Source: Marinobacter sp.
Lineage (GTDB): Bacteria; Pseudomonadota; Gammaproteobacteria; Pseudomonadales; Oleiphilaceae
NCBI RefSeq assembly: GCF_033722195.1
Contig: NZ_JAWVZL010000002.1
Span: 14,410-78,409 of the forward strand
Length of the DNA stretch: 64,000 bases
Direction of reading: 5' to 3'
How positions within the stretch are numbered: position 1 is the first letter of the stretch; each line of letters begins with the position of its first letter. Position numbers and translations under genes: made by a program. Below are positions 4,983 through 60,704 of this stretch, piece by piece. The notes beneath the pieces were generated by a model. That model saw only the letters and a list, made by a program, of their open reading frames with translations, had not been told where the DNA came from and searched no databases.

Positions 4983-4983
4983 C

Positions 4984-6594: not shown

Positions 6595-6684
6595 GCGGGC
6601 CCGGGCTACGACCAATTGAGCGTTACCCGGGCCGGACCGGTTCGGGGATAATGGCGCCAAATCCAGCACAAGGGAGAACGAGAC

Positions 6685-7470
6685 ATGGGATTACTCAGCG
6701 GTAAACGCGCACTGATTGTTGGCGTTGCCAGCAAGCTCTCCATCGCCGCCGGCATCGCCGAGGCTTTCCACCAGGAGGGCGCGGAGCTGGCCTTCACCTA
6801 CCAGAACGAGAAGCTGAAAGGCCGTGTGGAAGGCTTTGCCAAGGACTGGGGCAGCGAACTCACCTTCCCCTGTGACGTGGCCAGCGACGAAGAAATTGAA
6901 AATGTCTTTACCGAACTAAGCAAGCACTGGGACGGCATCGACATCATCGTGCACGCCGTGGGTTTTGCCCCCGGTCACGAACTCAACGGCAACTACGTGG
7001 ACGTCACCACCCGTGAGGGCTTCAAGATTGCCCACGACATCAGTTCCTACAGTTTCGTGGCGCTGGCCAAGGCCGCCAAGCCCATGCTGCGGGAAAACGG
7101 TGCGCTGCTGACCCTGAGCTACCTGGGTGCCGAGAAGGTGCTGCCCAACTACAACGTCATGGGCCTGGCCAAGGCCTCCCTGGAGGCGAATGTGCGCTAC
7201 ATGGCGGTCAGCCTGGGTGGCATGGGCGTGCGGGTCAACGGCATTTCGGCGGGTCCGATCCGCACCCTGGCGGCCTCCGGTATCAAGAGCTTCCGCAAGA
7301 TGCTGGCGGGGAACGAGAAACGCGCACCGCTGGGCCGCAACATCACCATCGAGGACGTGGGCAAGAGTGCCACCTTCCTGTGTTCGGATATGGCCAGCGG
7401 CGTGACCGGCGAGATTCTCTACGTGGACGGCGGCTTCAACATCACCGCCATGGCGGCCCTGGAAGAGTAG
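6685..7470 (+). CDS. fabI: Enoyl-ACP reductase (NADH)
   Basis: [12 protein letters not shown] catalytic motif, [12 protein letters not shown]; SD GGAG upstream. Confidence 0.97.
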
Positions 7471-21558: not shown

Positions 21559-22230
21559 TTATTCGCCGGCGGTCACCAGGCCGTTGAGACCAAAGCCCGC
21601 GTCCAGTTCACGCTTGGCTTTCTCCGCCGCTGCCTTGTCCACATAGGGGCCCACAAAGACCCGGGTGAAGGTGGTGCCGCCCTGCTCTACCCGCTGCAGG
21701 TGGGAGTCGTAACCCTTCTCGCGCACCTTGTCCCGCAGCCTGCGGGCGTTGTCGGCATTGCCGAAGCTGCCCAGCTGCACGACCCAGGCGCCCTCCAGGG
21801 AGCGGCTGAACTCCTCGGTTTCGGGCGCGGGCTCGGCAGCAGGCGCGGCAGGCTCCTGAGAGGCCTGGGTTTGAGTTTGAGTTTGAGTTTGGGCCGGGGT
21901 CTGGGTCTGAGACTGGGCCTGAGGCTGTGGTTCAGACTCCGGCGCCGCGGGTTCGGCTTCACCGGCGAGCTGTTCCGGCGCGGGCTGTGCCCGGTCGGGG
22001 CTGGCCGTGGGTTCGGAAGCCGGCGCCGAGGGCTCCTCAAGACGATAGCTGGGTGCCTCGGCATCGACCTTGGGGGGTGCCTGGACCTCCGGGAAAGGCG
22101 GCTCCTCGGGAATGTCGATCATGCGGGATGAGCGCTCGGTGTGGGGCTCGTCGAACAACATGGGCACAAAGATAACCGCCAGGGAAATCAGCACCAGCGC
22201 TCCGATTACCCTTTGTTTGAGTCCATCCAC
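21559..22230 (-). CDS. dedD: SPOR-domain cell division protein DedD
   Basis: GTG start after GGGGAG; LKQRVIGALVL TM; C-terminal SPOR WVVQLGSF...RVFVGPY; folC-dedD-cvpA order. Confidence 0.85.
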   Translation of the reverse strand: MDGLKQRVIGALVLISLAVIFVPMLFDEPHTERSSRMIDIPEEPPFPEVQAPPKVDAEAPSYRLEEPSAPASEPTASPDRAQPAPEQLAGEAEPAAPESEPQPQAQSQTQTPAQTQTQTQTQASQEPAAPAAEPAPETEEFSRSLEGAWVVQLGSFGNADNARRLRDKVREKGYDSHLQRVEQGGTTFTRVFVGPYVDKAAAEKAKRELDAGFGLNGLVTAGE

Positions 22231-45526: not shown

Positions 45527-47584
45527 CTAACCTGTCTGTATGCGTGGGATGCGGCCGGCTTCCGGCCGCTTGCGGCCAAGTTCCCGGCGGGTCGCCTTCA
45601 GCAGGCGCCTCAGCAGGGAGATCTGTGGCCGGGCGGGCCGGGCCGACGGCTTATAGTAATGATTGTTGACCTGGGCGGCAAAAGCGAGCAACGGCTTTTC
45701 CGCCGCGGGGAACCGCATCATCGCCCGCCGTGCCGTCTGGTCCGGCGTCTGCCCCGGCTCAACCGGCACACCATGCCGGGCCAGCAGCCTCTGCCACTGC
45801 AGCAGCAGCCGCTGCACCGGATCGGCCGGGCGGTTTGCCCGCTGGCGCAGCAGGGTAATCAAACCCGCCAGCGCCAGTGCGGCCGACACCAGGCCGGCGG
45901 TGACATACCCCAGCTCCCTCATCGACAGGTCGCCCGGCAGGTTCGACATCAGGGACCGCTGGGTCTGGCCCTGGTAGCCCACGACCCAGCGGGTCCAGTG
46001 ATAGTTGAGCTGGTCCAGGCGCAGGCTGGCCCACTGTACCAGCGCCAGGTCGCCGTAACGCTGCGGTGAGGTCCAGTCGTTCTCGAGGAACGAGCCCTCC
46101 TCCGCCACCGCTTCCCGCAGCCCGGACTCGATCCGCTGGGGCGCAATGGCTGCCGTGGGATCGATGCGCGCCCAGCCCCGTTCCGGCAGCCAGGCCTCGA
46201 CCCAGGCGTGGGCGTCATACTGGCGCACGATCAGGTATTCGTCGTCCACACCGGCCTCGCCGCCCTGGTAACCCACCACCACCCGTGCCGGAATACCGGC
46301 GGAACGGAGCAGGAAGGTCATGGCGCCGGCATAGTGGGCACAGAAACCCCGGCGAACGTCGAACAGCAGGGCGTCGATGCCGTCCTCCAGCATCACCGGC
46401 GGGCGCAGGGTGTAGAAGTAGGCCTCCGTGCGCAGGCGGCCCAGGAAGGTCAGGACCAGCTCCTCCGGCCCGTTGCTCTGCTGGCGCAGTTCCCGGGCCA
46501 GGGCTCGGGTGCGGCGGTTGCCCTCGGCCGGCAGCTGCAGGTAGCGCTGACGCTCACGGTTCGACAGGCCGGCGGTGTCGTCGGCATTGTCGTTCGCCGT
46601 CAGGGCCAGGCGGTAGCGCACCGTGGTGTCCGCCGGCCGGCGGAACCGGAACAGACCGCCCTCCACCGCCTCCAGGTTGTCGGAAACCGCCTGTGAGTCG
46701 TCCAGGGCAAAAGCCCAGCGCTGGTTGGTGGGGTCCAGCAGCACTTCATATTGGTCAGGCAGGAGATCGCCGGCGCCACCGTCCAAGTTGATGCGCCCTG
46801 GCGGACGATACGGCAAGGGGTCGCCCTGGCGCCAGGTATCGCCGTCGTAACGATCGAGGATCAGGCCACGCCAGTAGCGCTCCCGCTGAGGCGGCATGAT
46901 GCCGCCGAAGGTGACCCGGAAGGCGCGCTCGCTGCTCTGGGCCAGGTTGGAGATGGAGCCGGGACTCATGGTGTCGCTGATGCCGGTCTGGCCCTGGCCG
47001 CTGACCAGCGGTACGCTCCAGAGCGGCCCCATGCGTGGAAAGAACACGAACAGCAGCACCACGATGGGCAGGGTTTTCACCAGCATCAGCCCCAGGCGTC
47101 GCAAGCCGGACAAACCAGGGCTGCGCAGCTGAGGCGCGTTGAGCACCTGCAGGCCGATGAACAGCAGGGTGACGCCGGCCAGGTTCACCAGGGTCCAGCC
47201 GATGCCCTGCTGGAACAGGAAGTTCACCGTGGCCAGGTAGATCAGGATGAAAAACAGCACGTAGAAATCCCGGGAAGTGCGGGTTTCCAGCCATTTCAGC
47301 CCCACCGCCAGCACGAAGAAGGACGCTGCGGTATCCACCGAGAAGCGCGCATTCACCGTCAGCACGTAGATGCCCACCATGGTCAGCATGATGGTGGTGC
47401 GCAGCAGGCGCCCGGGCAGGCGCAGGCGTCCGCGCTGGGCGAGCCAGCGCCAGCCCGCCAGCAGCGCGCAGACCGCCATCAGCCAGACCGGCAGCCGGTC
47501 CCACTGGGGCAGCACCAGAATGCCGAAGGCCACGATCAGCCAGATCAGTGCCCGTTGCGGCAGGTCGTCCCGATGGCCGGTCAT
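45527..47584 (-). CDS. tgpA: DUF3488/transglutaminase membrane protein
   Basis: N-terminal TMs; GFCAHYA (Cys), DAHAWVEAW (His), IDPT (Asp) triad. Confidence 0.88.
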   Translation of the reverse strand: MTGHRDDLPQRALIWLIVAFGILVLPQWDRLPVWLMAVCALLAGWRWLAQRGRLRLPGRLLRTTIMLTMVGIYVLTVNARFSVDTAASFFVLAVGLKWLETRTSRDFYVLFFILIYLATVNFLFQQGIGWTLVNLAGVTLLFIGLQVLNAPQLRSPGLSGLRRLGLMLVKTLPIVVLLFVFFPRMGPLWSVPLVSGQGQTGISDTMSPGSISNLAQSSERAFRVTFGGIMPPQRERYWRGLILDRYDGDTWRQGDPLPYRPPGRINLDGGAGDLLPDQYEVLLDPTNQRWAFALDDSQAVSDNLEAVEGGLFRFRRPADTTVRYRLALTANDNADDTAGLSNRERQRYLQLPAEGNRRTRALARELRQQSNGPEELVLTFLGRLRTEAYFYTLRPPVMLEDGIDALLFDVRRGFCAHYAGAMTFLLRSAGIPARVVVGYQGGEAGVDDEYLIVRQYDAHAWVEAWLPERGWARIDPTAAIAPQRIESGLREAVAEEGSFLENDWTSPQRYGDLALVQWASLRLDQLNYHWTRWVVGYQGQTQRSLMSNLPGDLSMRELGYVTAGLVSAALALAGLITLLRQRANRPADPVQRLLLQWQRLLARHGVPVEPGQTPDQTARRAMMRFPAAEKPLLAFAAQVNNHYYKPSARPARPQISLLRRLLKATRRELGRKRPEAGRIPRIQTG

Positions 47585-48585
47585 GCCGCCGCCTCCCGGG
47601 TCGCCGGCGCGGCGCGATCATCCGTCGAGTCCGGCCCCTGCAGCCCAAACAGCGCCAGCGCCCGCAGGCAGCGGCGAACATGGACGTCGCCCTGGTCCGG
47701 CTCGATCACCTGCCCCGGCAACCGCAGCCCGAACAGATGCCCGGCTTGCTGGCGCTCCAGCACCTGGGCACAGAGATAGCTCAGCCGCAGCTCGGTGTCG
47801 GCGCCGGCGAATGCCTGGTAGTCCAGCCATTGCGGACTGCCCTGCTCACCCTCCCAGTCCGCAATCACCATTTCGCCGGTGCGGGCATAGCGCTTCCACT
47901 GCACCCGCTGCACCAGGTCTCCCTCCCGCCAGGGCCGGATTTCGGCATGATCGTGGCCGTGGGGGTCGGCCTGCTGCGCCGATTCCTCGCCGGCGACCGT
48001 CGGAGCGGCCACCTGGGGCGGTGTCAGCGGGCGCGGGTAGACAATGGCACGGCCGGCAGGCCGCATCCAGGACCAGGCCATCAGCAGGCCAAAGGGAAAG
48101 CGGGTTTCCACCCGCAGCCGCTCGATCCCCTGCCAGCCCCGCCGGGGCGCCGGCACCAGCACCGTCAGGTCGGCGGTTTCACCTTTGTCCAGGCTCTGGG
48201 GCGGGAGATCACCGTGGGGCAGCGACAGCTCGATGGCCACGGCATCGTTGTCGGGACTGGCGGCCCGGAACACGAAGGCCACGGACTGGCCGGCAAAGCC
48301 CTCGCCGGGGCGCACCAGGGTCAGTTCGAAGCCGTTGAGGTTACGGTGAGTCTGGTGCATGGCCGCCACAAACACCGCCCCCAGCATGAATGTCAGCAGG
48401 AAAATCAGGCTGTTCTGGTAGTTGATGCCGGTGATCAGCATGATCAGCAGCAGTGCCCCGAACAGCACCCCGGCGCCGGCGGGCAGGATGAAGATATTAC
48501 GCTGCTCGAAGCGCTGACGATCCGTGGGGGGAATGCGGCGATTCACCCAGTCCGCCCAGCGGCGTTTGAAGACTGCAAACATCAA
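47581..48585 (-). CDS. DUF58-domain protein
   Basis: GINYQNSL, ETRFPFGL, IRPWREGD...VQWKRYAR; overlaps the tgpA start. Confidence 0.88.
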   Translation of the reverse strand: MMFAVFKRRWADWVNRRIPPTDRQRFEQRNIFILPAGAGVLFGALLLIMLITGINYQNSLIFLLTFMLGAVFVAAMHQTHRNLNGFELTLVRPGEGFAGQSVAFVFRAASPDNDAVAIELSLPHGDLPPQSLDKGETADLTVLVPAPRRGWQGIERLRVETRFPFGLLMAWSWMRPAGRAIVYPRPLTPPQVAAPTVAGEESAQQADPHGHDHAEIRPWREGDLVQRVQWKRYARTGEMVIADWEGEQGSPQWLDYQAFAGADTELRLSYLCAQVLERQQAGHLFGLRLPGQVIEPDQGDVHVRRCLRALALFGLQGPDSTDDRAAPATREAAA

Positions 48586-48740
48586 GGGTTCCAGGGTCAG
48601 GCGGATCGGAACGGAAAATAACGGGCTGGCGGCCGAAGACGGTCACAAATCCACCAAAAGCAGCTTGAACTGTGGCCAGTCACACCAAATACTCTACCAG
48701 AGATCACTCTGTGCGTACCCTTATCCGATCGAGGTCTTTC

Positions 48741-49355
48741 ATGATACGTCGCAACCGCCTTTTCGTCGCACTGGCCGGTACTCTTACCCTGCCGGCATAC
48801 GCCGGGGTGCAGTCGCTGACCTCGGAGGAGATGGTGGACACCTACGTGCGGGACTCCGCCATCATCATCGTGCCCCGGGAGCAGCAGAAGCCGGCGGAGG
48901 AACGCCAGCGCATCATCCGATCCCTGACCATCTCCCCCGGTGAGCCGGTGGTGAAGGAGTCCGAGGAGCAGGCCTTCCTGGATGCCCTGCGGGATTCCGA
49001 AGAGGAAGGCCGGGAGCAGGCCCTGGAGGAAGCCCGGGAGGAGTTCGTCCGGCGCGCCATCCTGCTGCCGCAGGAGGAAGTGGCCCGGGCCCAGCCCACC
49101 GCAAGCTTTATCCCGACGGTGTCTCCCATCATCTTTGGCCAGCAGGCCGAAATCCCGGATGAGCCTTTCACCCAGACCTTTCTTAATGACCAGCTCAGCA
49201 TCGGCTTTGACGGCCAGAACGTGAACTTCTCCATCGGCAACCCGCCGGGTATCGACCAGATCCAGGTCCCCAGGGGCATCAACGAAGGCCCGATCCAGCT
49301 GACACCACGAGCCGGCGGCGGCTTTGACCTGTCCATCGCGGTGCCGGAGCGCTGA
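48741..49355 (+). CDS. Secreted hypothetical protein
   Basis: GAGGT SD, ATG 48741, signal peptide (...TLPAYA|G), own terminator; no family recognised. Confidence 0.75.
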   Translation: MIRRNRLFVALAGTLTLPAYAGVQSLTSEEMVDTYVRDSAIIIVPREQQKPAEERQRIIRSLTISPGEPVVKESEEQAFLDALRDSEEEGREQALEEAREEFVRRAILLPQEEVARAQPTASFIPTVSPIIFGQQAEIPDEPFTQTFLNDQLSIGFDGQNVNFSIGNPPGIDQIQVPRGINEGPIQLTPRAGGGFDLSIAVPER

Positions 49356-49384
49356 ACCGGATCGCCTGAAACCCAAACCCGAAG

Positions 49385-49410
49385 AGACCCGCCTAGGCGG
49401 GTCTTTTTTT
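49385..49410 (+). terminator. Intrinsic terminator of 48741-49355
   Basis: AGACCCGCCTAGGCGGGTCT palindrome followed by a T run. Confidence 0.85.
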
Positions 49411-49431
49411 GATATCGATTTTTCTGGCCAC

Positions 49432-49458
49432 AAAAAAACGCCCCGCTGGGCGGGGCGT
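49432..49458 (-). terminator. Intrinsic terminator of the DUF6160 gene
   Basis: A7-CGCCCCGC-tgg-GCGGGGCG; U-tract on minus strand. Confidence 0.85.
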
Positions 49459-49483
49459 CTTCAACACTGGGATCGCGGGTCGA

Positions 49484-50326
49484 TTAGTGACCGTAGATCT
49501 TCATGTTGGTCTGGGTGATGGCCAGGTTGTCCATGGAGATCACACCGATGGAAGTGCCACCGATCTCGGTTGCGCCGATGCTGATGTCAGCAATGAACTC
49601 GGGCACGCCGATTTCCAGGGCTTCGCCGGAAGCGGAGCCAGCTACACCAGTAGCTTTGCCGATGGTCAACTGGGCGTAGGCGAAACCAGCTGCGATGTAT
49701 GGGCTACCACCCACACCGCCAGCATCCGCGTACGTTGCGCCGAAGGTGTTAGCGCCGGTAACGGTCAGGTCACGGATGCCAATACCCAGGAAGTCCACGT
49801 CCATGTCCATGTCAGTGATATTGAAGGCAAGATCAGTGATCATGGTGTCGGTTGCGGTATCGACGCGCAGCTTGATGTCAGCCAGCAGACCGGTGATGCC
49901 GATGTTGGAAGCCAGCAGGGTGCTTTCGCTGCCGTCAGCAGCTACCAGAGAAGCGGTCTCAACGCCTACTGCAAAATCTACCGGGCCACCGGATACGCTG
50001 TTAACGTCGATCACTGCGTCGCCGTCAGCTTCCACGTCGATGTCGATCTTCAGGTCGTCCAGCAGGCCACTAACGCCGCTCACGTTGCCGTCAGCGTCAG
50101 TCTCAATGGCGCCGCCACCGATATGGATACCAGACACTACGAAGTTACCTTCGTCAGTGTACGTGAAGCTCCCGATATCAACTTTGGTTTCCAGCTCGAT
50201 GGTAACACCGGCCTGACCGGTGACGTTACCCATGGAGGTGTCGTCGAGGGCTTTCAGGTCCGCCTGGGCGGCGAAGGGTACGGCAGCAACCGCAGTTGCC
50301 AGAGCAAGTTTCTTCAGGCCTTTCAT
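49484..50326 (-). CDS. DUF6160-family (FilA-like) secreted beta-rich protein
   Basis: AAGGAG SD; MKGLKKLALATAVAA...AQADLKALDDTSMGNVTGQAGVTIEL...YTDEG; C-terminal IGVISMDNL...IYGH. Confidence 0.82.
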   Translation of the reverse strand: MKGLKKLALATAVAAVPFAAQADLKALDDTSMGNVTGQAGVTIELETKVDIGSFTYTDEGNFVVSGIHIGGGAIETDADGNVSGVSGLLDDLKIDIDVEADGDAVIDVNSVSGGPVDFAVGVETASLVAADGSESTLLASNIGITGLLADIKLRVDTATDTMITDLAFNITDMDMDVDFLGIGIRDLTVTGANTFGATYADAGGVGGSPYIAAGFAYAQLTIGKATGVAGSASGEALEIGVPEFIADISIGATEIGGTSIGVISMDNLAITQTNMKIYGH

Positions 50327-50435
50327 ATTGTTCTCCTTAACGGAATTTGTTGTTTTCCAAGTGCGGCGTGTTTTGTTTTGTATCCGCACGGTTAAAGAGT
50401 AGGCGCTTGTGTAACCGGGTTCCGTGATTACCTTC

Positions 50436-50465
50436 ACAGTACTTGATAATCCGTTTGTCCGACAA
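50436..50465 (-). promoter_or_regulatory. Putative sigma70 promoter of the DUF6160 gene
   Basis: TTGTCG-N18-TACTGT on minus strand. Confidence 0.4.
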
Positions 50466-50466
50466 C

Positions 50467-51048
50467 CTAAGAATCTTGTCGAGTGGTCCTTGGTTCCTGT
50501 TTCTTGAATACGAAGATTGAAGGCTTAGACTCGACGGCGACGGGCTTACCAACCTTTATCTTTCCATTATCAAGCGAGTATGGCGTTACCTGCGCCAGGG
50601 TTGGCCCAAAAATGTGCTCCATCTCAGCCACTACAACAAATTCGGCATTGGAATCCTTATCGGGATTCGGAGCCACATAAACCAGACAGGTGGCGCCAAT
50701 CCCGCCGTTCTTCACCAGAACCCGAAGACTGCGGCGCATCACCTCGAGAGCAACATTGGGGGGAAAGGTTTCCACTTTATCAATTCTAACGACCCGGATT
50801 TCGCTCTTGCGGTCAGCCACTACCGCAAACGCTTTTATCGCCTCGCCATCCTCTAAACGCTCTGACGCATTCGCCATGGCCTTTCTGTACATTGCTTCAA
50901 ATTGCTGCTGAGTAAACTCCCGGACACCCTCTTCCGTAAACTCCCCCCTCTCCTGTGCAACCGCGGTAGCGGCAAATATGACAACCAACAGCACGGCGAG
51001 AAGTGTCTGAACAGAGAAAAAGACGGACCTGCTATTCGTCATTGACAT
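50467..51048 (-). CDS. Secreted hypothetical protein, lower GC
   Basis: AAAGGA SD, signal peptide (...AATAVA|QE); ~50% GC in hand-counted lines versus ~65-70% in flanking genes. Confidence 0.75.
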   Translation of the reverse strand: MSMTNSRSVFFSVQTLLAVLLVVIFAATAVAQERGEFTEEGVREFTQQQFEAMYRKAMANASERLEDGEAIKAFAVVADRKSEIRVVRIDKVETFPPNVALEVMRRSLRVLVKNGGIGATCLVYVAPNPDKDSNAEFVVVAEMEHIFGPTLAQVTPYSLDNGKIKVGKPVAVESKPSIFVFKKQEPRTTRQDS

Positions 51049-51174
51049 GCTTAGCTTCCTTTTATAAGTGCTCGCCTCCTCTGATGGGCGGCGTGACCTC
51101 AAATATCGCCGCTGTTTGGAGTATCATGACGGCAGTCTCACCACCGCCCGGTGCTCCCCAGCAACAGGTATCAC

Positions 51175-52518
51175 GTGCAATCATCCCTGAAAGAATTTTC
51201 CGTTTCTGCCGAACATCTGGCACTTTGGCTTGACCATCTGGCCCTGGAGCCGGGCTTCTGCCTGCTGCATCGCCCGGATGGCTCGGTGGTGGTCACCGCC
51301 TGGCCGCAGCGGCAGTGGCGGATTCCTGCCGCACCCGACCCCAGGCTATGGGACCAACTGGTGGCGGAGTGGGAGGCTGCGGAGCGCCTGCTGAGGGAGA
51401 GTCACCGGAAGTCGGTCGATGCCGGCCTGTTCAGCGCCGGTCTGGTGGGCGCAATGGATTACGAGGCGGGCATCCATACCGTACCGGGGTTTCGCAGCAA
51501 CCGAATGCTGGCTTCAGACCAGGCCCTGGGCTGGGTTGGCCTGTTCTGGTGGGGGCTGACCATTGGATCCGACGGTCGCGGTGCTCATGGCGTCATCCAC
51601 CCCCACTGCCCGCGGGCAACCCTGGACCGGCTGGCGCCCATGCTGCGCGGTGAGGCCCCCGTTGCCCTGCCCGGCCAGCCATTCCGCATGGAGCAGGCCT
51701 TCCAGCCGGGCCAGAGTCCCACCGATTACGCCGACGGCGTCGAACAGGTGCTGGCCTACATCAACGCCGGCGATTGCTACCAGGTCAACCTGTCACAACG
51801 CTTTGATGGTCGCTTCTCGGGCCGGCCCTTTGATGCCTTCAAGGCTTTGCACGCGGCCATCCCCGTGCCCCACGCCGCCTTTATCAACGCCGGCGATCAC
51901 CAGATCCTGTCCATCTCACCGGAACGCCTGATGCGCATTCGCGACAATGAGGTGGAGAGCAAGCCCATCAAGGGCACCCGCCCCCGCGGTGTCACCGCTG
52001 CAGAGGATGCCGCCCTGAGGCAGGACCTGGAGACCAGCGCCAAGGACCGGGCCGAGAACCTGATGATCGTGGACCTGATCCGCAACGACCTGTCCCGGGT
52101 CTGCCAGCCCCACACCGTGGCGGTGCCGAAGCTCTTCGAGATTGAGAGCTACCAGAACGTGCACCAGTTGGTGAGCACCGTCACCGGTCAGCTCAGGCCC
52201 GATGTGGCGGCAATGATCGCACTGCTGTCCACATTTCCCGGGGGCTCCATCACCGGCGCCCCGAAGCGGCGGGCCATGGAGATCATCGACGAGCTGGAGC
52301 CCCATCTCCGGGGCCCCTATTGTGGCAGCGTGTTCTACCTGCAGTCGGACGGCACCCTGGACAGCAACATCGCCATCCGCACCCTGGTGACAGAAGCAGA
52401 CGGCAGGATTTCCTGCTGGGGCGGCTGCGGCATCGTGGCCGATTCCGATCCCAGGGCGGAGTATGAGGAATCCATCACCAAAGTGGGACGGCTGATGCGG
52501 ACTCTGGAGGAGCTTTGA
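51175..52518 (+). CDS. pabB: Aminodeoxychorismate synthase component I
   Basis: GDCYQVNL, SKPIKGTRPR, ENLMIVDLIRND, FPGGSITGAPK; start uncertain (GTG 51151 or 51175). Confidence 0.92.
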   Translation: MQSSLKEFSVSAEHLALWLDHLALEPGFCLLHRPDGSVVVTAWPQRQWRIPAAPDPRLWDQLVAEWEAAERLLRESHRKSVDAGLFSAGLVGAMDYEAGIHTVPGFRSNRMLASDQALGWVGLFWWGLTIGSDGRGAHGVIHPHCPRATLDRLAPMLRGEAPVALPGQPFRMEQAFQPGQSPTDYADGVEQVLAYINAGDCYQVNLSQRFDGRFSGRPFDAFKALHAAIPVPHAAFINAGDHQILSISPERLMRIRDNEVESKPIKGTRPRGVTAAEDAALRQDLETSAKDRAENLMIVDLIRNDLSRVCQPHTVAVPKLFEIESYQNVHQLVSTVTGQLRPDVAAMIALLSTFPGGSITGAPKRRAMEIIDELEPHLRGPYCGSVFYLQSDGTLDSNIAIRTLVTEADGRISCWGGCGIVADSDPRAEYEESITKVGRLMRTLEEL

Positions 52519-52531
52519 CTCGGGGTGAGAC

Positions 52532-52573
52532 GAACACGGGGTCAGAAAAAGACTGTCTCCTGACCCCGTTTTC
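52532..52573. repeat. REP-like palindrome GGGGTCAG...CTGACCCC between convergent pabB and thrH
   Basis: ACGGGGTCAG (52536-45) / CTGACCCCGT (52560-69), extendable to 14 bp with one mismatch. Confidence 0.6.
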
Positions 52574-52588
52574 AGACGCCGCTCTGTG

Positions 52589-53197
52589 TCAGAAGCGGTT
52601 GCTGAGTTCCAGGAACTTGGCTTTCAGATCATCGAAGGTGTGCACGGCGGGGAACTGGGGGAATTCGTCGATCACGTTCTGGGGCGCATGGAACAGAATG
52701 CCCGCCTCGGCCTGCTTGAGCATGGTGGTGTCGTTGTAGGAGTCGCCGGCGGCGATCACCCGGTAGTTCAGCAGCTGGAAAGCCCGCACGGACTGGCGTT
52801 TGGGGTCCTTCTGGCGGATCAGGTAGTCGGTGATGCGGCCCTGGTCGTTGACTTCCAGCTTGTGGCACAGCAGCGTCGGATGGCCCAGCTTGGCCATCAG
52901 GGGCATGGCGAACTCATAGAAGGTGTCCGACAGGATCACCACCTGGAACCGCTCCCGAAGCCAGTCCAGGAATTCGGCGGCACCCGGCAGCGGATTCAGC
53001 TCGCCGATGACTTCCTGGATCGCCGGCAGGCCATAGCCGTGCTCGTCCAGTAGCCGCAGGCGCTGCTGCATCAGCACGTCGTAGTCGGGGATGTCGCGGG
53101 TGGTGGCCTTCAGTGCCTCAATACCGGTTTTCTCCGCAAATGCGATCCAGATTTCCGGGATCAGTACTCCTTCAAGATCGAGGCAAGCGAGTTCCAC
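52589..53197 (-). CDS. thrH: Phosphoserine phosphatase/homoserine phosphotransferase
   Basis: CLDLEGVLIPEIW HAD motif, ILSDTFYEF, AAGDSYNDTTML. Confidence 0.95.
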   Translation of the reverse strand: MELACLDLEGVLIPEIWIAFAEKTGIEALKATTRDIPDYDVLMQQRLRLLDEHGYGLPAIQEVIGELNPLPGAAEFLDWLRERFQVVILSDTFYEFAMPLMAKLGHPTLLCHKLEVNDQGRITDYLIRQKDPKRQSVRAFQLLNYRVIAAGDSYNDTTMLKQAEAGILFHAPQNVIDEFPQFPAVHTFDDLKAKFLELSNRF

Positions 53198-53419
53198 GGA
53201 CGTCTCCTAATTCTGGGTTGGATGGGGGCCGGCAGTCTTACTGCCACTGGGCCCAGTCGAAAGACCGCCTATGATATGAAAAAGCGCCGCAAAATGCATC
53301 GCGGACCGATCCTGCCCTTATGACGCGCCTCCGGCATAACGATATGCGCGCATCGTTCTTCAGAGTCGGCCGCCACAATGGTAGATTTGTGCCCAAATTC
53401 CCGATGAATCCGGACCCTT

Positions 53420-54142
53420 ATGAACGACATCCAGCAGTTGCAGCAGGACCTGGAGGGCCAGTCGCCCCGGGCCATCATCAAGGCCGCCCTGGCCCGCTAC
53501 GATAACATCGCCATCTCCTTCAGCGGTGCCGAGGATGTGGCGCTGATCGAGCTGGCCCACAAGCTGACCGATAATCTTCAGGTATTCACCCTGGACACCG
53601 GCCGCCTGCATGCGGAGACCTACGATTTCATCGAGCGTGTCCGCAAGCACTACGGCATCCGGATCCAGGTGATGGCGCCGGACGCCGGCGAGTTGGAAGC
53701 GCTGGTGTCAGAGAAAGGCCTGTTCAGCTTCTACGAGGACGGTCACTCCGAGTGCTGCGGCATCCGCAAGGTCAACCCCCTGCGTCGCAAACTGGCCAGC
53801 GTGGATGCGTGGATCACCGGCCAGCGCAAGGACCAGAGCCCGGGCACCCGCAACGAGGTGCCGGTGGTGCAGCGGGACGATGCCTTCTCCACTGACGAGC
53901 GCACCCTGGTCAAATTCAACCCGCTGGCCAACTGGACCTCAAAGGAAGTCTGGGACTACATCCGCATGACCGAGGCGCCCTACAACCAGCTCCACGAAAA
54001 GGGTTTTGTCAGCATCGGCTGCCAGCCCTGCACCCGGCCGGTGCTGCCCGGCCAGCATGAGCGCGAAGGCCGCTGGTGGTGGGAGGAAGCCACCCAGAAG
54101 GAATGCGGCCTGCATGCCGGCAATGTGATCGCCAAGGTCTGA
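53420..54142 (+). CDS. cysH: APS reductase ([4Fe-4S] type)
   Basis: SFSGAED, LDTGRLH, ECCGIRK, CQPCT, KECGLH. Confidence 0.93.
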
Positions 54143-54155
54143 AGGGGGGAACTCG

Positions 54156-54269
54156 CCCCCTCTCCCCAACCCCTCTCCCGCCAGGGGAGAGGGGCTAAGC
54201 CAGGGCGCGAGTCATTAAGGTTTTGGCCTCCCCTCTCCCCTCGTGGGAGAGGGGCCGGGGGAGAGGGGG
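54156..54269. repeat. Inverted doublet of CCCCTCTCCC/GGGAGAGGGG REP-like units
   Basis: Unit 1 (54156-54194) is nearly identical to the reverse complement of unit 2 (54230-54269); 35-nt spacer. Confidence 0.8.
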
Positions 54270-54270
54270 T

Positions 54271-55314
<1,044 letters not shown>

Positions 55315-55548
55315 TCATTTATAGAATAGCGGGTGCCTGATATTCCAGTGTAGACCAAAACCCCGACAATCAAGTGACAGCGCTTGACTTCAGCGCCTCA
55401 AAGCACACAATCCCAGATCTGAGGGCCCGAACATCACCCACAGCGCCCGTCAGTCGGGCCCGGGATGTCCGATTAGATCCGCTGCCTGCCCCAGCTGCTA
55501 CGCTGGTGAAGGGCAACGGCCATTTTGCCATTGCAACCCAGTCCGCCC

Positions 55549-58260
55549 ATGCTCCTGACCACCAAGTTTCTCCGCCCAGCGCCCGACCCCCGCTCCATCG
55601 AACGGGACCGGCTGTTGCGTATTCTGGCACCGCGGCCGGCCAAGCGGCTGAATCTGGTGGTGGCCCCGGCGGGCTTCGGTAAGACCACGCTGGTGAACCA
55701 GTGGTGTGAACAGGAGGCACAGCGCAGTGACGGCCGCAGCTGCGCCTGGCTCGCCCTGGACGAGCACGACGACGAGCCGCGCCGGTTCTGGCAGTACCTG
55801 GCAGGCGCCTTTGCCCACGCCGGACTCGGTGGCCTGGAGGAGTGCCGGAACCTGCTCAACAACGTGTCGGTTCAGGAACTGGAAGGCGCCACCACCGCCC
55901 TGATCAACGCCCTGGTGGCCGAAGGCCGGCCCCGGGCCCTGGTGCTGGACGACTACCACCTGATCCGGGACCCCCGGATTCACCGTCAGCTCAGCTTTTT
56001 CATCGATTACCTGCCCCCCAACCTGGTGGTGTTCATTGCCTCCCGGGTGGAGCCCGAGCTGCCGGTCGCCCGCTGGCGGGTGCGGCAATGGCTGGACGAG
56101 ATTCACCCCCAGCTGCTGGCCTTCTCCGAAAAGGAGTGCCAGCGCTTTTTCGAGGAAACCATGGCGCTGCCCCTCTCGCCCGAGGAGGCCCACCGTATCT
56201 GGCAGACCACCGAGGGCTGGGTGGCGGCCATGCAGCTGGCGGCGCTGTCCGGACAGAAGGACGGCGAGGCAGTGGCGCGCAATCAGCCGCCCATCGCCGT
56301 CAGCAATCGCCAGATCAACGATTACGTGTTGAGCGAAATACTGGACAAACAGACCCCGGAGATTCGCGAGTTCCTGCTGGATACCGCCGGCGTTACCCGG
56401 CTCTGCGCCTCCCTGGCCAATGCCATGCGGGAGCGGGACGACTCCCAGGCCCTGCTGGAGAACCTGACCCGCCATAACCTGTTTCTGATTCCGCTGGACA
56501 CCCGCCAGGACTGGTTCCGCTACCACGACCTGTTCCGGGACGCCCTCCTCCAGCGCGCCCGGCAGTCCGACCCGCAGCGGCTGGAAGACCTGCAGAACCG
56601 CGCCATCGACTGGCTGCTGGCCCATGACCACATCCAGGAGGCCATTGCCCAGATCGTCCAGCACCAGGACTGGCCGCGGCTGTCCCGGGTGCTGGAGCTG
56701 CACGGCAACAACCTCATTCACGGCGGCTTCCACCTGCCGGTGCTGGACTGGCTGGAGACCCTGCCGGTGGGTGAGATCGAAGACAATCCCCGGCTCCAGA
56801 TGCTGCGGGTGTGGGCACTGTTCTTTGCCAACCGGGTCAGCCAGATCGAGGCCCAGCTCAGCCACCTGGAGGATGTGCTGGATCAGCGCGTCGCCGACTC
56901 CCATCCGGACGCCGACGGGGCTTTGGGTCTGCAGAGCGAAATCGCCCTGATGCGCTCCTACCTGGCGCGCTCACGCAGCGATTACGACAGCGCCCAGAAC
57001 CTAACCAACCAGGTACTGCGGGACATCGACCACACCCGCATCCCGTTGAAATCGGTGACCTACTACGGCCTGGGCCTGGACGACTATGGCCGGGGCGAGC
57101 TGGGCGCCGCCGAGAGTGCCCTGCAGTCCGCCGTCAGCCACGGCCAGCGGGAACACAAGCCGTCCACGGTACTGTCCAGCGGCGGCCTGCTGGCCTGGAT
57201 CCAGTTCAACCGGGGCGACATCGAGCTGGCCCTGCGCACCTGCACCGAGGTCCGGGACTGGATCGACCAGCATTACAACGACCCCACCCAGCCACGCCTG
57301 ATCTCATGCTGGCAGAACGCCACCCTGGTGGAGATCCACCGGGAGCGTAACCAGCCGGAGCTGGCGGAATCCTACCTGACCCCGCTGCTGAGCCACGTCG
57401 AGAAAGGCACCGAGCCGGGCCAGCACGTGATCATCCAGTACGTCCGGGCCCACCTCGCCTTCAGCCAGGGTGACCATCAGCTCGCCTTGGCCGCCCTGGA
57501 GGACGCCGAAGCGGTCGCCCGTCAACGCCGCGAGGACATCGTCTTCGAGCCCCCCAGTTGCGCTGCCCTGCGGGCCCGCTGCTACCTGGCCATGGGTGAG
57601 CTGGAGCGCGCCCGGCAGTGGCTGGCCACCGAACAGGCCGGCGAATTCCGAAATCCCCTCAACCGGGAACAGACCAGCATCAGCGCGGCCCGGGTCCATC
57701 TGGCCTCGGGCGAGCCGGAGGCCGCCATCCGACTGCTTGAACCCATGCGCATCAGCACGGAACGGGACCAGCACTACCGTCATCTGATTGAAGTTCAGGT
57801 GCTCTACGCCGAGGCTCTGGACCGGCGTGGCGCGACCCGGGAAGCCACCAGCCAGATGGTCACCGCTCTCAAGCGTGCCGCCAGGGCCGGGTTCCTGAGG
57901 ATGTTTGCGGAGGAAAGCCCGCGGGTGCAGGCCCTGATCCTCGCGCTCGCCAATCCGGACCTGCCCCAGCAGTGGTTTGGCCGGCTGCGGACCATGCTGG
58001 CGGCAAGCAAGCCGGTCACGCCGGAAAGGGCCACCACGGTGGCGCCACATCCGGGGTCGGCGCTGGTCGAGCCCCTGAGTCAGCGTGAACAGGAGGTGCT
58101 GGCGCTGATCAACGAAGGCCTGTCCAACAAGGACATTGCCCGGCGCATGGACGTCGCCGCCACCACCGTGAAGGCCCACATCCGCAACCTCTATGGCAAA
58201 CTGGACGTCAGCCGCCGCACCGAGGCCCTGGCGCGGGCCCGGCAGCTGAAATTGCTCTAG
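55549..58260 (+). CDS. MalT-family (STAND ATPase + LuxR HTH) transcriptional activator
   Basis: MLLTTKFLRP, APAGFGKTT, LDDYH, WFRYHDLF, C-terminal LSQREQEVL...NKDIA...VKAHIRNLYGKL. Confidence 0.92.
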   Translation: MLLTTKFLRPAPDPRSIERDRLLRILAPRPAKRLNLVVAPAGFGKTTLVNQWCEQEAQRSDGRSCAWLALDEHDDEPRRFWQYLAGAFAHAGLGGLEECRNLLNNVSVQELEGATTALINALVAEGRPRALVLDDYHLIRDPRIHRQLSFFIDYLPPNLVVFIASRVEPELPVARWRVRQWLDEIHPQLLAFSEKECQRFFEETMALPLSPEEAHRIWQTTEGWVAAMQLAALSGQKDGEAVARNQPPIAVSNRQINDYVLSEILDKQTPEIREFLLDTAGVTRLCASLANAMRERDDSQALLENLTRHNLFLIPLDTRQDWFRYHDLFRDALLQRARQSDPQRLEDLQNRAIDWLLAHDHIQEAIAQIVQHQDWPRLSRVLELHGNNLIHGGFHLPVLDWLETLPVGEIEDNPRLQMLRVWALFFANRVSQIEAQLSHLEDVLDQRVADSHPDADGALGLQSEIALMRSYLARSRSDYDSAQNLTNQVLRDIDHTRIPLKSVTYYGLGLDDYGRGELGAAESALQSAVSHGQREHKPSTVLSSGGLLAWIQFNRGDIELALRTCTEVRDWIDQHYNDPTQPRLISCWQNATLVEIHRERNQPELAESYLTPLLSHVEKGTEPGQHVIIQYVRAHLAFSQGDHQLALAALEDAEAVARQRREDIVFEPPSCAALRARCYLAMGELERARQWLATEQAGEFRNPLNREQTSISAARVHLASGEPEAAIRLLEPMRISTERDQHYRHLIEVQVLYAEALDRRGATREATSQMVTALKRAARAGFLRMFAEESPRVQALILALANPDLPQQWFGRLRTMLAASKPVTPERATTVAPHPGSALVEPLSQREQEVLALINEGLSNKDIARRMDVAATTVKAHIRNLYGKLDVSRRTEALARARQLKLL

Positions 58261-58367
58261 AAACCTGCATATTTTTGAGAGCCGGGTCACATTTTCTGTG
58301 ACTTTTTTGACGTCACTACGCCCTTTGGACGATCCGGATACGCCCCCTACTCCCCTAAGATGGTTTC

Positions 58368-58504
58368 AACGATGAGGCAACCGCCTTGTCAGGAATTTGA
58401 AACTTCAGGCCTTCAGATTCCATGTTGCGTTCTCAGCGCCAGGGTTCCTCCAAGTCGAGACCCTGTTTGAAAGGTGCCACTGCTCAGGTTGGCGCCTTTT
58501 TTTT
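58368..58504 (+). ncRNA. Candidate small regulatory RNA downstream of the MalT-family gene
   Basis: TAAGAT -10 candidate at 58356-61; internal hairpins; plus-strand terminator with T8; no SD-led ORF. Inference only. Confidence 0.5.
58470..58504 (+). terminator. Intrinsic terminator, plus-strand polarity
   Basis: AAAGGTGCCA...TGGCGCCTTT followed by T8 (58497-58504). Confidence 0.85.
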
Positions 58505-58541
58505 CGCCCGCAGAAAACCGGGAGGTCAGGCGGCGAGTGCT

Positions 58542-60704
58542 TCAGCGCTCGATGATGCGCCGGAAGGGTGGCAGGGAATCCAGCAGCAACTGACCGTAGC
58601 GGCGGCTGACGATACGGCGGTCCAGTATGGTGACCCGGCCGGTATCCTGCTCGGTGCGCAGCAATCGACCTACCGCCTGCACCAGCTTAATGGAGGCGTC
58701 CGGAACCGCGATCTCCATGAAGGGGTTGCCGCCGCGGCTGGTCACCCACTCCGCCAGGCTGGCGTCGATTGGGTCGTCAGGCACCGAGAACGGCAGCCGG
58801 GTGATCACCACGTGGTCCAGGTAACGACCCGGCAGGTCGATACCCTCGGCAAAACTGGCCACACCGAACAGCACACTGGGCCGGCCGGCGTCGATCCGCT
58901 CGCAGTGCTGGCGAAGTACTTCGCCCTTGGCCATGTCGTCCTGGGTCAGGATCAGGTCCGGGTAGTCCGGCGCCAGCCGGTCCCGAACCGCATTCATCTG
59001 GCGGCGGGCGGTGAACAGCACCAGGGTCGCCTTGTCACTGGCCCAGAGATCCGGCAGGCGTTTCACCAGGGCCTCGGTAAAGGCCTCGCTGTCGGTGGGC
59101 AGGGCTGCCATGCCCGGCACCTCGATGGTGGCCATATCGGCGTAGCGGAAGGAACTGGGCACCACCAGGAAACGGCTGGCGTCCGGCAGTCCGGCGCGGG
59201 ACTGCAGGCGGTCAAAGCGGCCCAGGGCGGTCAGGGTGGCACTCGTGAGGATGGCGCCGTAAACCCGCGACCAGAGCCGGGTGTAAAGCAGATTGTCCGC
59301 CAGCACCGGGCTACTGAACAGGGTGATGTCCTCGGCGTGGTCCCAGCGCTGCCGCACCGCCCAGCGGGCCGGCGGCGGCCCCCACTGTTTGCGGCCCTCG
59401 CCCTCCTCCGGCAGCCGCTTCTCGGACCAGGCGACCCACAGCCGCAGCTGGTCCTCGGCTCGGGCATGGAAACTGCCCATGACCGGGAACCAGGCCTCGG
59501 CGGTGGGCCGGTCCACGTCGTTCTCCCGTTTGTCGTCAAAGGCCTTCTGCAACTCGTCCACCAGCACACCCAGCTGGCGTACCAGGGCCGCGGTAGCCAG
59601 CTGTGCGGCCCCGGCCAGCTCCGCCAGTGCCTCCGGAAGCTCGCCCTCGGGATAGCGCCACTGGGCGGAACGGCGCTCATCGCTGAACTCCCAGTCGGTG
59701 TTCTGCTCGGCCTCGTCATAGACCTGGTCCAGCACCCCGTCCAGCTCCCGGGCGCAGGCACTGATCTTGTCCACGGTCTTGGCGGCGATGGTGCCTGGCG
59801 TGAGGAACGGCGGAATCTTGCTCAGCGCCTGGGACAGCTGCTTGAGCCACTGCCGGGTGCTGTTCAGTGGCACCGAGGCGGCGAAGTGATTGAGGGCCTT
59901 GTCCGGCAGGTGATGGGCCTCGTCGAAGATGAACAGGGCGTTCTCCGGCTCCGGCAGGATGGCGCCGCCACCGAGGGCCAGGTCCGCCAACACCAGATCG
60001 TGGTTGGCCACGATCACGTCGGCATCTTCCAGGCCCTTGCGGGCATCAAAGAAGGCGCAGCTGTCGAAGTAGGCACAGTGTCGGTTGGTGCACTGGCGGT
60101 GGTCGGTGGTGACCTGGCGCCAGATGTCGTCGGGTATCTGGCTGGGCCAGTGGTCCCGGTCGCCATCCCATTCCTGGCTGCCGTAGCGGCCCAGCATGTC
60201 CTCGAAGAATTCCCGGGTGCCGGGCTCTTCGTCCCGGGGCTCGTCCAGGATGAACAGCGGCATGCTCTCGCTGTCACCGGCGCCCTCGTCCTGCAACCGG
60301 CCCTCCAGCCGGGACAGGCAGAGGTAACGGCCGCGACCCTTGGCCAGGGTCCAGCTGAAATCCAGATTGCTGTGCTTTCTCAGATCCGGCAGGTCCTTGT
60401 GCACGATCTGGTCCTGCAGTGCCACGGTGGCGGTGGAAATCACCAGCTTCTTGCCCAGGGCCCTGGCCACGGGAATGGCGGCAATCAGATAGGCCAGGGT
60501 CTTGCCGGTCCCGGTGCCCGCCTCCACCACGCAGGCGGCCGGGGGTGAGGTTCGCTCGCCGTCATTGGCGGTGATATCGCCCATGTATCGGGCGATCTCG
60601 GCAATCATCAGACGCTGGCCATAGCGGGCACGTACGCCCTTGCCCGCCAGTACGTCCCGGTAGGCCTGCTGAATGGCCTGCTTGACGTCCTCGGTCAGGG
60701 CCAT
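58542..60704 (-). CDS. dinG: ATP-dependent Fe-S helicase DinG
   Basis: EAGTGTGKTLAY, Fe-S cysteines (CLSR; CTNRHC...C), DEAHHL, SFAEGIDLPG, QAVGRLLR. Confidence 0.94.
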   Translation of the reverse strand: MALTEDVKQAIQQAYRDVLAGKGVRARYGQRLMIAEIARYMGDITANDGERTSPPAACVVEAGTGTGKTLAYLIAAIPVARALGKKLVISTATVALQDQIVHKDLPDLRKHSNLDFSWTLAKGRGRYLCLSRLEGRLQDEGAGDSESMPLFILDEPRDEEPGTREFFEDMLGRYGSQEWDGDRDHWPSQIPDDIWRQVTTDHRQCTNRHCAYFDSCAFFDARKGLEDADVIVANHDLVLADLALGGGAILPEPENALFIFDEAHHLPDKALNHFAASVPLNSTRQWLKQLSQALSKIPPFLTPGTIAAKTVDKISACARELDGVLDQVYDEAEQNTDWEFSDERRSAQWRYPEGELPEALAELAGAAQLATAALVRQLGVLVDELQKAFDDKRENDVDRPTAEAWFPVMGSFHARAEDQLRLWVAWSEKRLPEEGEGRKQWGPPPARWAVRQRWDHAEDITLFSSPVLADNLLYTRLWSRVYGAILTSATLTALGRFDRLQSRAGLPDASRFLVVPSSFRYADMATIEVPGMAALPTDSEAFTEALVKRLPDLWASDKATLVLFTARRQMNAVRDRLAPDYPDLILTQDDMAKGEVLRQHCERIDAGRPSVLFGVASFAEGIDLPGRYLDHVVITRLPFSVPDDPIDASLAEWVTSRGGNPFMEIAVPDASIKLVQAVGRLLRTEQDTGRVTILDRRIVSRRYGQLLLDSLPPFRRIIER

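Follow-up and report, generated by a model that had tools for sequence, protein, structure and literature searches.

A 64,000-nt stretch of a Marinobacter contig (NZ_JAWVZL010000002.1; the whole of this stretch is called the window below) contains, between the gene for a MalT-family regulator and the convergent gene dinG, what is very probably, on comparative sequence grounds, a genuine stand-alone gene for a small RNA (sRNA), on the plus strand at 58368–58504. The explanation that best covers the evidence as a whole, and which we regard as likely, is that of a stand-alone, non-coding, base-pairing sRNA, driven by the adjoining regulator and directed at the mRNA of a secreted protein of the DUF6160 family.

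The sRNA gene lies in a spacer of 281 nt (58261–58541), bounded by an open reading frame (ORF) of 911 aa on the plus strand (55525–58260), which encodes the regulator, and by one of 720 aa on the minus strand (58542–60704, stop codon 58542–58544), recognised as dinG (DinG at 846 bits). An earlier note on this DNA had correctly placed the stop of the MalT-family gene at 58260 and dinG convergent with it, and had proposed for 58314–58504 an sRNA of about 135 nt with its own -10 element and terminator. The proposal is supported for 58368–58504, a span of ~137 nt with covarying helices, no conserved ORF, and a -10 element at a fixed distance from an upstream 20-mer; the upstream part of the proposed interval, 58314–58361, appears to be promoter DNA.

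Conservation of the spacer

Forty-eight loci from species-representative genomes were gathered with the regulator protein as the query, and comprise Marinobacter together with one Tamilnaduibacter and one Oleiphilus metagenome-assembled genome (MAG), with regulator identities of 44–74%. The regulator is followed by a convergent dinG in 44 of the 48, the spacer measuring 228–314 nt, and 561 nt in one locus. Over 45 syntenic loci the spacer is conserved in length and sequence as a mosaic of variable and near-invariant blocks, and in the model alignment described below five helices covary, which bears out the conservation and covariation that the earlier note had expected of a functional RNA. Mean pairwise identity is 0.15 directly after the regulator stop, 0.71 over a 16-nt CRP-like box, 0.44 over the next 24 nt, 0.98 over the 20-mer CTACGCCCTTTGGACGATCC that follows, 0.85 over the -10 hexamer and 0.73 over the ~140-nt RNA; the coding DNA of the regulator stands at 0.61–0.70.

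A covariance model, R1, was built from 34 typical sequences with five helices (stem-loops SL1–SL4 and the terminator). Exactly one full-length plus-strand match was found in 48 of 49 sources, at 37–164 bits, the Oleiphilus MAG alone lacking one, and minus-strand matches were confined to the palindromic terminator. The window scored 75.1 bits (E = 3.7e-21, 58362–58503). R1 also matched 38 of 80 metagenome loci, the low-GC relatives carrying more divergent copies. In the R1 alignment, which was fitted to the model and in that way favours structure, standard pairing accounts for 94.4% of cells, and both partners have changed in 21 of the 40 pairs; none of 500 shuffles was as good, and 33–52% of cells were paired when the 3' partners were slid by 1–3 columns. 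SL1, SL2 and the terminator also emerged from an independent MAFFT/RNAalifold run, in which 10 pairs were compensatory. The single-sequence fold of the spacer barely beats shuffles (z = -1.96), so that the window alone is weak proof and the case rests on comparison.

Structure of the predicted RNA

With its 5' end placed 7 nt past the -10 element and its 3' end at the T8 run, the predicted RNA folds as four hairpins plus a terminator, at -53.1 kcal/mol. SL1 (58371–58390) has an 8-bp stem, GAUGAGGC-AACC-GCCUUGUC, within which lies the small 5' hairpin AGGC-aacc-GCCT picked out at the outset; 97% of its cells are paired, with two compensatory pairs, and it is missing from the most divergent low-GC members. 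SL2 (58392–58421), the sole RNA element universal to the family, has a 10-bp stem and a 10-nt loop, ACUUCAGGCC (58402–58411), and holds the candidate seed CUUCAGGCCUU (58403–58413, plus strand). It is followed by a pyrimidine-rich linker, AUGUU, and a short SL3 (GCGUU-CUC-AGCGC; linker and helix together 58422–58439), in which 94% of cells are paired. Elsewhere in the family the linker reads UUUCUUGUUCC or UUUCUCCU, and a CU-rich stretch stands directly 3' of SL2 in nearly all members.

SL4 (58440–58465) is the CAGGGU...ACCCUG hairpin, with compensatory changes in four of its six stem pairs. The earlier note had read this hairpin as the carrier of an anti-Shine-Dalgarno seed, TTCCTCC (58445–58451). 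The covarying stem upholds the hairpin; the seed is conserved in no relative, the loop UUCCUCC being specific to the window and replaced in most relatives by GAAA or a short variable sequence, so the anti-Shine-Dalgarno motif is not a family feature. The unpaired pyrimidine-rich stretch of the same note fared better, in that the linker after SL2 is a conserved single strand, to which the SL2 loop has to be added. The RNA ends in a Rho-independent terminator (58469–58504; dG -16.9 kcal/mol), a GC-rich hairpin with U8 (58497–58504), in which 9 of 11 stem pairs are compensatory. Its T-run lies on the plus strand in 48 of 48 loci, with no U-tract after the hairpin on the minus strand, in line with the original observation that this terminator does not serve dinG. 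A simple promoter/terminator scanner reported nothing in 57500–59500 and missed the terminator hairpin.

SL1, SL3 and SL4 are lost or substituted in divergent members. The constant core consists of the hairpin loop (N)UUCAGGCC, minimally UCAGGCC, then the CU-rich single strand, then the terminator. Among 108 loci with the module (upstream element, -10 and sRNA) there are 63 distinct 40-mers around CAGGCC; when 27 representative variants were folded, CAGGCC lay within the loop in all of them and was fully unpaired in 26. The SL2 stems that carry it are unrelated between lineages (GGAAUUCUGAA/UUCAGAUUUC, AAGCAAAAA/UUUUUGUUU, AAAACACGA/UUGUGUUUU and GAGAAGAC/GUUUUCUU, with the further variants CUUGAGA/UUUCAGG, AACACGA/UUGUGUU and GAAGAC/GUUUUC), and the constancy of the loop on stems that covary marks it as the functional centre of the RNA. 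The SL2 loop UUCAGGCC together with the CU-rich linker thus forms the conserved candidate seed; UUGACGCC is an example of an altered form of this loop, designed rather than natural. The CU/U-rich linker after SL2 and the U8 tail fit the features of Hfq-type sRNAs, and the RNA may be Hfq-dependent.

The RNA appears to be non-coding. Among the 48 loci, 29 have no plus-strand ORF of at least 20 codons and the ORFs of the remaining ones are in differing frames; minus-strand ORFs occur in three different frames, none of them conserved. Small-protein readings, namely a 36-aa ORF at 58360–58470 and the minus-strand ORFs, were rejected for this lack of frame conservation. Rfam 15 gave no match at the gathering threshold for the spacer, where the best E-value was 6, or for the 64-kb window as a whole; for a typical member (L017) the best match was Thr_leader at 17 bits, and for five divergent loci the only match was a sub-threshold one to Spot_42 in one member (L098). 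These results agree with the earlier description of the sRNA as unannotated. Judged by its sequence, it is a previously undescribed sRNA family of a known kind, outside any Rfam family. No further copy of the upstream element or of the loop motif of the module occurs in the 64-kb window.

Promoter architecture

The hexamer TAAGAT (58356–58361, plus strand), previously picked out as a -10 candidate with a poor -35, is present and conserved across loci, as TATTAT/TATGAT in 41 of 48 and as T-A-n-n-A-T in nearly all, and no -35-like hexamer lies 16–19 bp upstream of it. The 9 nt past the hexamer vary freely, and the conserved RNA structure begins thereafter with SL1; a conserved hexamer followed by a variable stretch is the picture expected of a -10 element and a transcription start site (TSS) region.

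Upstream lies the 20-mer CTACGCCCTTTGGACGATCC (58316–58335, ~-52 to -33), a candidate upstream activating sequence (UAS). Identical in 46 of the 48 loci and altered at a single position in the remaining two, it begins exactly 40 bp upstream of the -10 element in 44 of the 48; since these loci were gathered via the protein and not the DNA, its invariance is not circular. Within the window the 20-mer is unique at up to three mismatches. It contains a repeat box, TACGCCC (box1, 58317–58323), and the hexamer GGACGA (58327–58332), centred at ~-38.5 from the predicted TSS. A direct repeat of TACGCCC (box2, 58339–58345, ~-29 to -23) follows 22 bp after box1 and reads TACGCCC or TAAGCCC in all module loci, and many relatives (L091, L098, L012, L025) have a third TACGCCC copy 10–11 bp upstream of box1. 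Spacings of 10–11 and 22 bp make these helically phased direct repeats.

Further upstream stands a CRP/Vfr-like box, TGAGA-GCCGGG-TCACA (58276–58291), centred at ~-84.5, the left half of which is degenerate in the window. The -84.5 and -38.5 positions assume a TSS 7 nt after the -10 element. The family consensus of the box is TGTGA-N6-TCACA; all 48 loci agree with it at 8 or more of the 10 half-site positions, and in 43 of 48 the box is centred exactly 72 bp upstream of the start of the -10. N6 is not conserved, the flanks agree with those of the CRP consensus (AAA/TTT), and the box is missing in low-GC relatives. In the window the right half of the box also takes part in a hairpin of the type GGTCACA-TTTTC-TGTGACC followed by T6 (58285–58309, plus strand; dG -7.9 kcal/mol), directly after the regulator stop, which is specific to the window and may act as a weak terminator for the regulator gene.

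In E. coli, MalT-dependent promoters have direct-repeat boxes upstream, and several need CRP. They presumably also lack a -35 element and carry a MalT box with a GGA(T/G)GA core at -37.5/-38.5. The parallel with the present promoter is a lead only; the repeated unit here is TACGCCC, at 11- and 22-bp spacing, and not the E. coli MalT box. Transcription from this promoter, its start point and the binding of the regulator and of CRP are predictions made from DNA sequence. On inspection, sigma-54, sigma-32, FliA and extracytoplasmic function (ECF) sigma-factor readings of the promoter were rejected, none of them fitting the spacing rules. A class II CRP promoter, with which the 20-mer would fall within the RNA, was set aside on the same spacing grounds in favour of the conserved TAnnAT.

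The adjoining regulator and its link to the sRNA

The 911-aa regulator combines a STAND ATPase, tetratricopeptide repeats (TPR) and a LuxR-type helix-turn-helix (HTH), its Pfam domains being TPR_MalT, GerE and AAA_16. The NCBIfam MalT equivalog model aligns with it end to end (1–896 of 903) at 468 bits, below the cutoff of 537, which makes the protein a MalT homologue and not demonstrably a maltose regulator; the gene of this MalT paralogue has no linkage to mal genes. Its N-terminal 415 aa match the E. coli MalT structure 8bob (E = 7e-57). The C-terminal HTH is the best-kept part of the regulator, at 78% mean identity vs ~60% elsewhere in the protein, and its recognition helix, (T/A)TVKAHIRNLYGK, is invariant even among orthologues with 42% overall identity, which fits an invariant operator.

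A metagenome scan with the core of the 20-mer, TACGCCYTTTGGACGAT, as the query returned 120 stretches, of which 59 are chance matches in unrelated coding DNA and 61 carry box2 and the -10 element. A MalT homologue lies immediately upstream of the module in 108 of 109 loci (48 of 48 from genomes, 60 of 61 from metagenomes), the metagenome regulators sharing 42–77% identity with the window protein. One of these loci, L045, has an alpha/beta hydrolase gene in place of dinG downstream, with the sRNA still beside the regulator. The comparison thus supports the activator–sRNA module suggested by the earlier note, and it is reasonably probable, from this conserved arrangement, that the neighbouring MalT paralogue activates the sRNA directly. 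The module spans lineages with a locus GC of 0.38–0.42 (L063, L094, L137, L119, L156) and of 0.58–0.62 (L091, L098/L116, L118, L167). Named relatives of the L098 regulator come from 'Halomonadaceae bacterium KBTZ08', 'Marinobacteraceae bacterium', Mangrovitalea, Oleiphilaceae and Tamilnaduibacter.

The single exception, L156, has the UAS, the -10 element and the sRNA with no adjacent regulator. Here the sRNA adjoins a cluster of a 208-aa ORF, a DUF58 gene and a TgpA gene, and the equivalent cluster in the window flanks the DUF6160 gene. The low-GC locus L063 has two tandem sRNA copies on the minus strand, at 5438–5579 and 6246–6388. The second copy, which stands after a small ORF at a distance of 0.8 kb from the regulator, comes with a CRP-like box of its own; its upstream element is a variant one, TAAGCCCTTTGGGTGAT ... 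TAAGCCCC ... TAATAT.

The DUF6160 mRNA as candidate target

The window contains seven GGCCTGAA sites, one of them being the sRNA gene read on its opposite strand. The only one at a start codon belongs to a minus-strand gene with its ATG at 50326, reading AAGGAGAACAAUAUGAAAGGCCUGAAGAAA. This gene (49484–50326) encodes a DUF6160-family secreted protein of 280 aa (Pfam DUF6160, 1.5e-34) with the signal peptide MKGLKKLALATAVAAVPFA, which also matches the NCBIfam model pilus_FilA weakly, at 33 bits against a cutoff of 220. The candidate target site on its mRNA (50312–50338, minus strand) takes in a Shine-Dalgarno (SD) sequence, AAGGAG (50333–50338), the start codon (50324–50326) and, over codons 2–5, AAGGCCUGAAG (50312–50322), to which the sRNA seed CUUCAGGCCUU is perfectly complementary over 11 nt. 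The stretch of codons 2–5 proposed to pair with the loop UUCAGGCC is AAGGCCUGAA, and the target-side partner of the loop is GGCCUGAA.

In 15 metagenome loci, as in M. nauticus, a syntenic DUF6160 homologue stands at a distance of ~8 kb from the sRNA, and every module-bearing metagenome locus of sufficient reach has one, except L119, in which the upstream gene order differs. Among 17 distinct DUF6160 genes from module-bearing loci, the proteins of which are 32–81% identical to that of the window, 16 begin with an identical ATGAAAGGCCTGAA. Codons 2–4 (AAA GGC CTG) are invariant, and synonymous sites are frozen only there among the first 25 codons; later conserved residues vary in codon, with CTG/CTT/CTC/TTA for Leu9 and four codons each for Ala12, Ala15 and Ala22. 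L094, at 39% GC, retains ATGAAAGGCCTGAA although its neighbouring leucines are TTA; the site is missing from its third paralogue (MKCLRK).

When each sRNA was matched with its own target, the predicted duplex joined the loop with codons 2–5 and the CU-rich linker with the SD region, antiparallel in 17 of 17 pairs. The lineage-specific linker of the window, CAUGUUG, could pair with CAAUAUG, which includes the start codon. Of the 10 loci in which the sRNA has C at the 5' margin of the duplex, 8 have G in the target, and no locus with an sRNA A does; with loci counted irrespective of phylogeny, this co-variation of sRNA and target is suggestive. Ranking of targets in the window by duplex energy was tried and found non-discriminating, the best non-self match being a (GTTTGA)n coding repeat at ~21860–21900. 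Taken together, the evidence makes the DUF6160 mRNA a plausible direct target, rather more probable than otherwise on the strength of the frozen codons and predicted duplexes. The sign of the regulation would be repression, to go by the position of the duplex.

The DUF6160 promoter also has a CRP-like element. Every DUF6160 gene is preceded by a -10 of the form TTAAAT or TACTCT with a TGTGA-N6-TCACG box at class II distance, and the leaders are (AAN)n-rich, with AACAACAAA-type runs that fit the (ARN)n motif looked for in mRNAs targeted by Hfq-dependent sRNAs. In the window the box is TGTGAAGGTAATCACG (50423–50438, minus strand), 21 nt upstream of the TACTCT -10 (50396–50401) and in class II geometry; the box, a TTAAAT -10 and the (AAN)n-rich leader are kept upstream of DUF6160 in 17 other loci. 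With CRP-like boxes at both the DUF6160 and the sRNA promoter, CRP may drive both.

Alternative explanations

Several observations count against a regulator-driven, DUF6160-directed sRNA. At the promoter, GGACGA agrees with what we take to be the E. coli MalT box at only five of six core positions, and box2 falls between -35 and -10, which is unusual for a class II activator. The metagenome loci were gathered by an exact UAS match, which inflates the invariance of the UAS outside the 48 protein-anchored loci, and in the Oleiphilus MAG (L040) a regulator with the same HTH (3983–6718, plus strand) has no UAS or sRNA within 4 kb. The DUF6160 target site was found post hoc, and ranks 658 of 25,578 windows by raw duplex energy in what is a GC-rich window. 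DUF6160 genes from genomes lacking the sRNA were sought as a control; the top 120 protein matches were all from Marinobacter, and the plasmid collection held no homologue. As regards expression, no public RNA run contained window sequence, and 23 runs contain the L017 homologue as assembled contigs (Logan, 0.3–67 kb). The eight runs compared at the L017 locus gave contigs over the whole flanking genes at flat depth, in which no transcript ends are readable, and a contig from a low-coverage metatranscriptome (X1, L017 6687–6992) runs from the 3' end of the regulator gene to just past the terminator.

One rival view is that the sRNA chiefly binds or titrates a protein via the UUCAGGCC loop, or has targets other than DUF6160, the DUF6160 match being coincidental or a shared signal. 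A loop kept constant while its stem covaries freely is equally a signature of protein recognition, DUF6160 is not singled out by duplex energy alone, and the direct repeat CUUCAG-GC-CUUCAG of Marinobacter may serve as a bipartite site for a protein. This view is nonetheless unlikely, as synonymous positions are frozen exactly over the 10–11 complementary nt in genomes of 39%–62% GC, the loop and CU-rich stretch run antiparallel to codons 2–5 and the SD sequence, and the sRNA, regulator and DUF6160 gene are linked across genera; the loop also lacks the GGA of CsrA/RsmA sites.

The RNA could also be a processed or terminated 3' untranslated region (UTR) of the regulator mRNA with no promoter of its own, in which case the 20-mer would be a part of the RNA or a processing signal. 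The X1 contig is continuous from the 3' end of the regulator, which makes read-through from the regulator gene possible; in most loci, moreover, no convincing terminator separates the regulator stop from the conserved block, and in low-GC relatives the stop is only 5–25 nt from the 20-mer. Such an origin is improbable all the same. TAnnAT keeps a constant distance of 40 bp to the 20-mer and is followed by ~9 variable nt, the pattern of a promoter and TSS, and the 20-mer and TACGCCC repeats are without covariation or hairpin potential and have an 11-/22-bp periodicity like that of protein-binding DNA. L156 retains the UAS, -10 and sRNA without an upstream regulator, the second copy in L063 stands behind an ORF with its own UAS variant, and in the window the hairpin with T6 parts the regulator from the element.

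Thirdly, the RNA might belong, as a divergent form, to the Spot 42 (spf) family, with which it shares the form of a short Hfq-type sRNA with an intrinsic terminator, a link to CRP through the CRP-type box in the promoter, and a UUUCAGRCCUUU-like stretch. Positions 10920–11029 of L098 align full-length to Rfam Spot_42 (RF00021) at 29.5 bits (E = 5e-4 in a 251-nt search), the common stretch in L098 being AGAGGUAA...UUUCAG(G/A)CCUUU...AUUG. That score is far under the gathering threshold of 80, however, and the window and a typical Marinobacter member have no Spot_42 match even at E<=10. The two also differ in the structure around the common motif, in synteny and in CRP-site geometry. UCAGGCC is in a hairpin loop here, whereas UCAG is a bulge in a long stem in the Spot_42 model; the context is regulator/dinG rather than what we take to be polA-spf-yihA; and the CRP box is at an activating distance (~84 bp upstream), whereas spf is presumably repressed by CRP. 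Membership is therefore very doubtful.

Extremely improbable, finally, is that no RNA gene exists and that DNA operators, a bidirectional terminator or a small protein explain the conservation: the upstream third of the spacer is clearly DNA-binding sequence and the palindromic terminator hairpins match on both strands, but DNA operators leave the compensatory changes of the four internal helices unexplained, the plus strand always carries the T-run while the minus strand has no U-tract, the element persists without dinG (L045, L156), and there is no in-frame conserved ORF on either strand.

A possible circuit and its relation to known systems

For the sRNA gene as preferred here, regulator-driven and aimed at DUF6160, the following mechanism can be proposed. 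The promoter, with a TAnnAT -10 and no -35, would be activator-dependent; the MalT-homologous regulator would bind the invariant element from -52 to -23, with its TACGCCC repeats and GGACGA, and a CRP/Vfr-type site at ~-84 would co-activate in most lineages. The loop UUCAGGCC would then nucleate pairing with DUF6160 codons 2–5 (AAGGCCUGAA) and the CU-rich stretch would pair with the SD region, both pairings occluding the ribosome-binding site, such that translation would be repressed. Tentatively, and as a possibility we rate somewhat below even, the sRNA may be the principal, perhaps the only, direct output of a MalT-type STAND ATPase and may silence a CRP-activated surface or secreted protein of the DUF6160 family, forming an incoherent feed-forward circuit, in which CRP activates both the target and the sRNA. 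Such a circuit would be conserved in Marinobacter and its allies, in genera of 38%–62% GC, the operator and the target site both being frozen.

Transcription factors encoded beside the sRNA that they control are known from SgrR-SgrS, GcvA-GcvB, OxyR-OxyS and VqmA-VqmR, and NrsZ lies downstream of ntrBC in Pseudomonas. Like modules of the SgrR-SgrS type, the present locus sets a regulator gene beside a short, intrinsically terminated sRNA with an activator-dependent promoter, which would act post-transcriptionally on few mRNAs. It differs from them in that the regulator is a 911-aa STAND/MalT-type ATPase, vs LysR, SgrR or PAS-LuxR types, in that the sRNA is tandem and downstream rather than divergent, and in having no similarity to their sRNAs (no Rfam match).

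RybB, MicA and MicC repress envelope proteins by pairing within the first five codons, where the sRNA duplexes block 30S binding. The predicted pairing over codons 2–5 and the SD sequence of an mRNA for a signal-peptide protein resembles theirs. In contrast, the seed here is in a hairpin loop, implying kissing-type nucleation, and not in an unstructured 5' end, and control is proposed to lie with a MalT-like regulator and CRP rather than with sigma-E.

Marinobacter serves as a model genus in work on the degradation of hydrocarbons, on biofilms that form on hydrophobic substrates and on association with algae. The locus offers a compact, testable circuit, made up of a sensor, a near-invariant operator, a structured sRNA with a loop seed and one strongly predicted target. 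If the proposal is true, it would give the first functional handle on DUF6160 proteins and on the orphan MalT paralogue, and large STAND/LAL regulators could then be shown to signal through RNA. With at least 100 loci in hand, the family could enter Rfam and genome annotation.

A precedent for MalT-type activators driving regulatory RNAs is provided by Vsr217 of Vibrio, a MalT-dependent sRNA from the malK 5' UTR, the promoter of which has a MalT box; it belongs to the maltose regulon and targets fbp (PMC8265627). Unlike Vsr217, which is cut from an mRNA leader, the present sRNA appears to have a stand-alone gene, with another sequence, another predicted target and no mal linkage. Literature searches found no characterised Marinobacter sRNA, and beyond Vsr217 nothing relevant on MalT/LuxR-linked sRNAs or DUF6160.

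Neighbouring genes

The gene order at the locus is cysB-regulator-sRNA-dinG, with cysB, a LysR-type gene further upstream of the regulator, at 54271–55314 on the minus strand (CysB at 583 bits). The DUF6160 gene belongs to a minus-strand cluster (45527–51102) of a TgpA-type transglutaminase gene (45527–47584), a DUF58 gene (47581–48585), a 278-aa ORF, DUF6160 itself and a 211-aa ORF, the last of which has no Pfam match. Between this cluster and the regulator lie a pabB-like (chorismate-binding) gene, a HAD phosphatase gene, cysH, for phosphoadenosine phosphosulfate (PAPS) reductase, and cysB, in a block (51151–55314) whose order is preserved in M. nauticus (L169). In the Oleiphilus MAG L040 an AhpC/TSA gene lies 63 nt after the regulator, and L098 contains group II intron domains on the minus strand at 1075–1347 (Rfam group-II-D1D4-3 at 100.9 bits, D1D4-1 at 50.1 bits).

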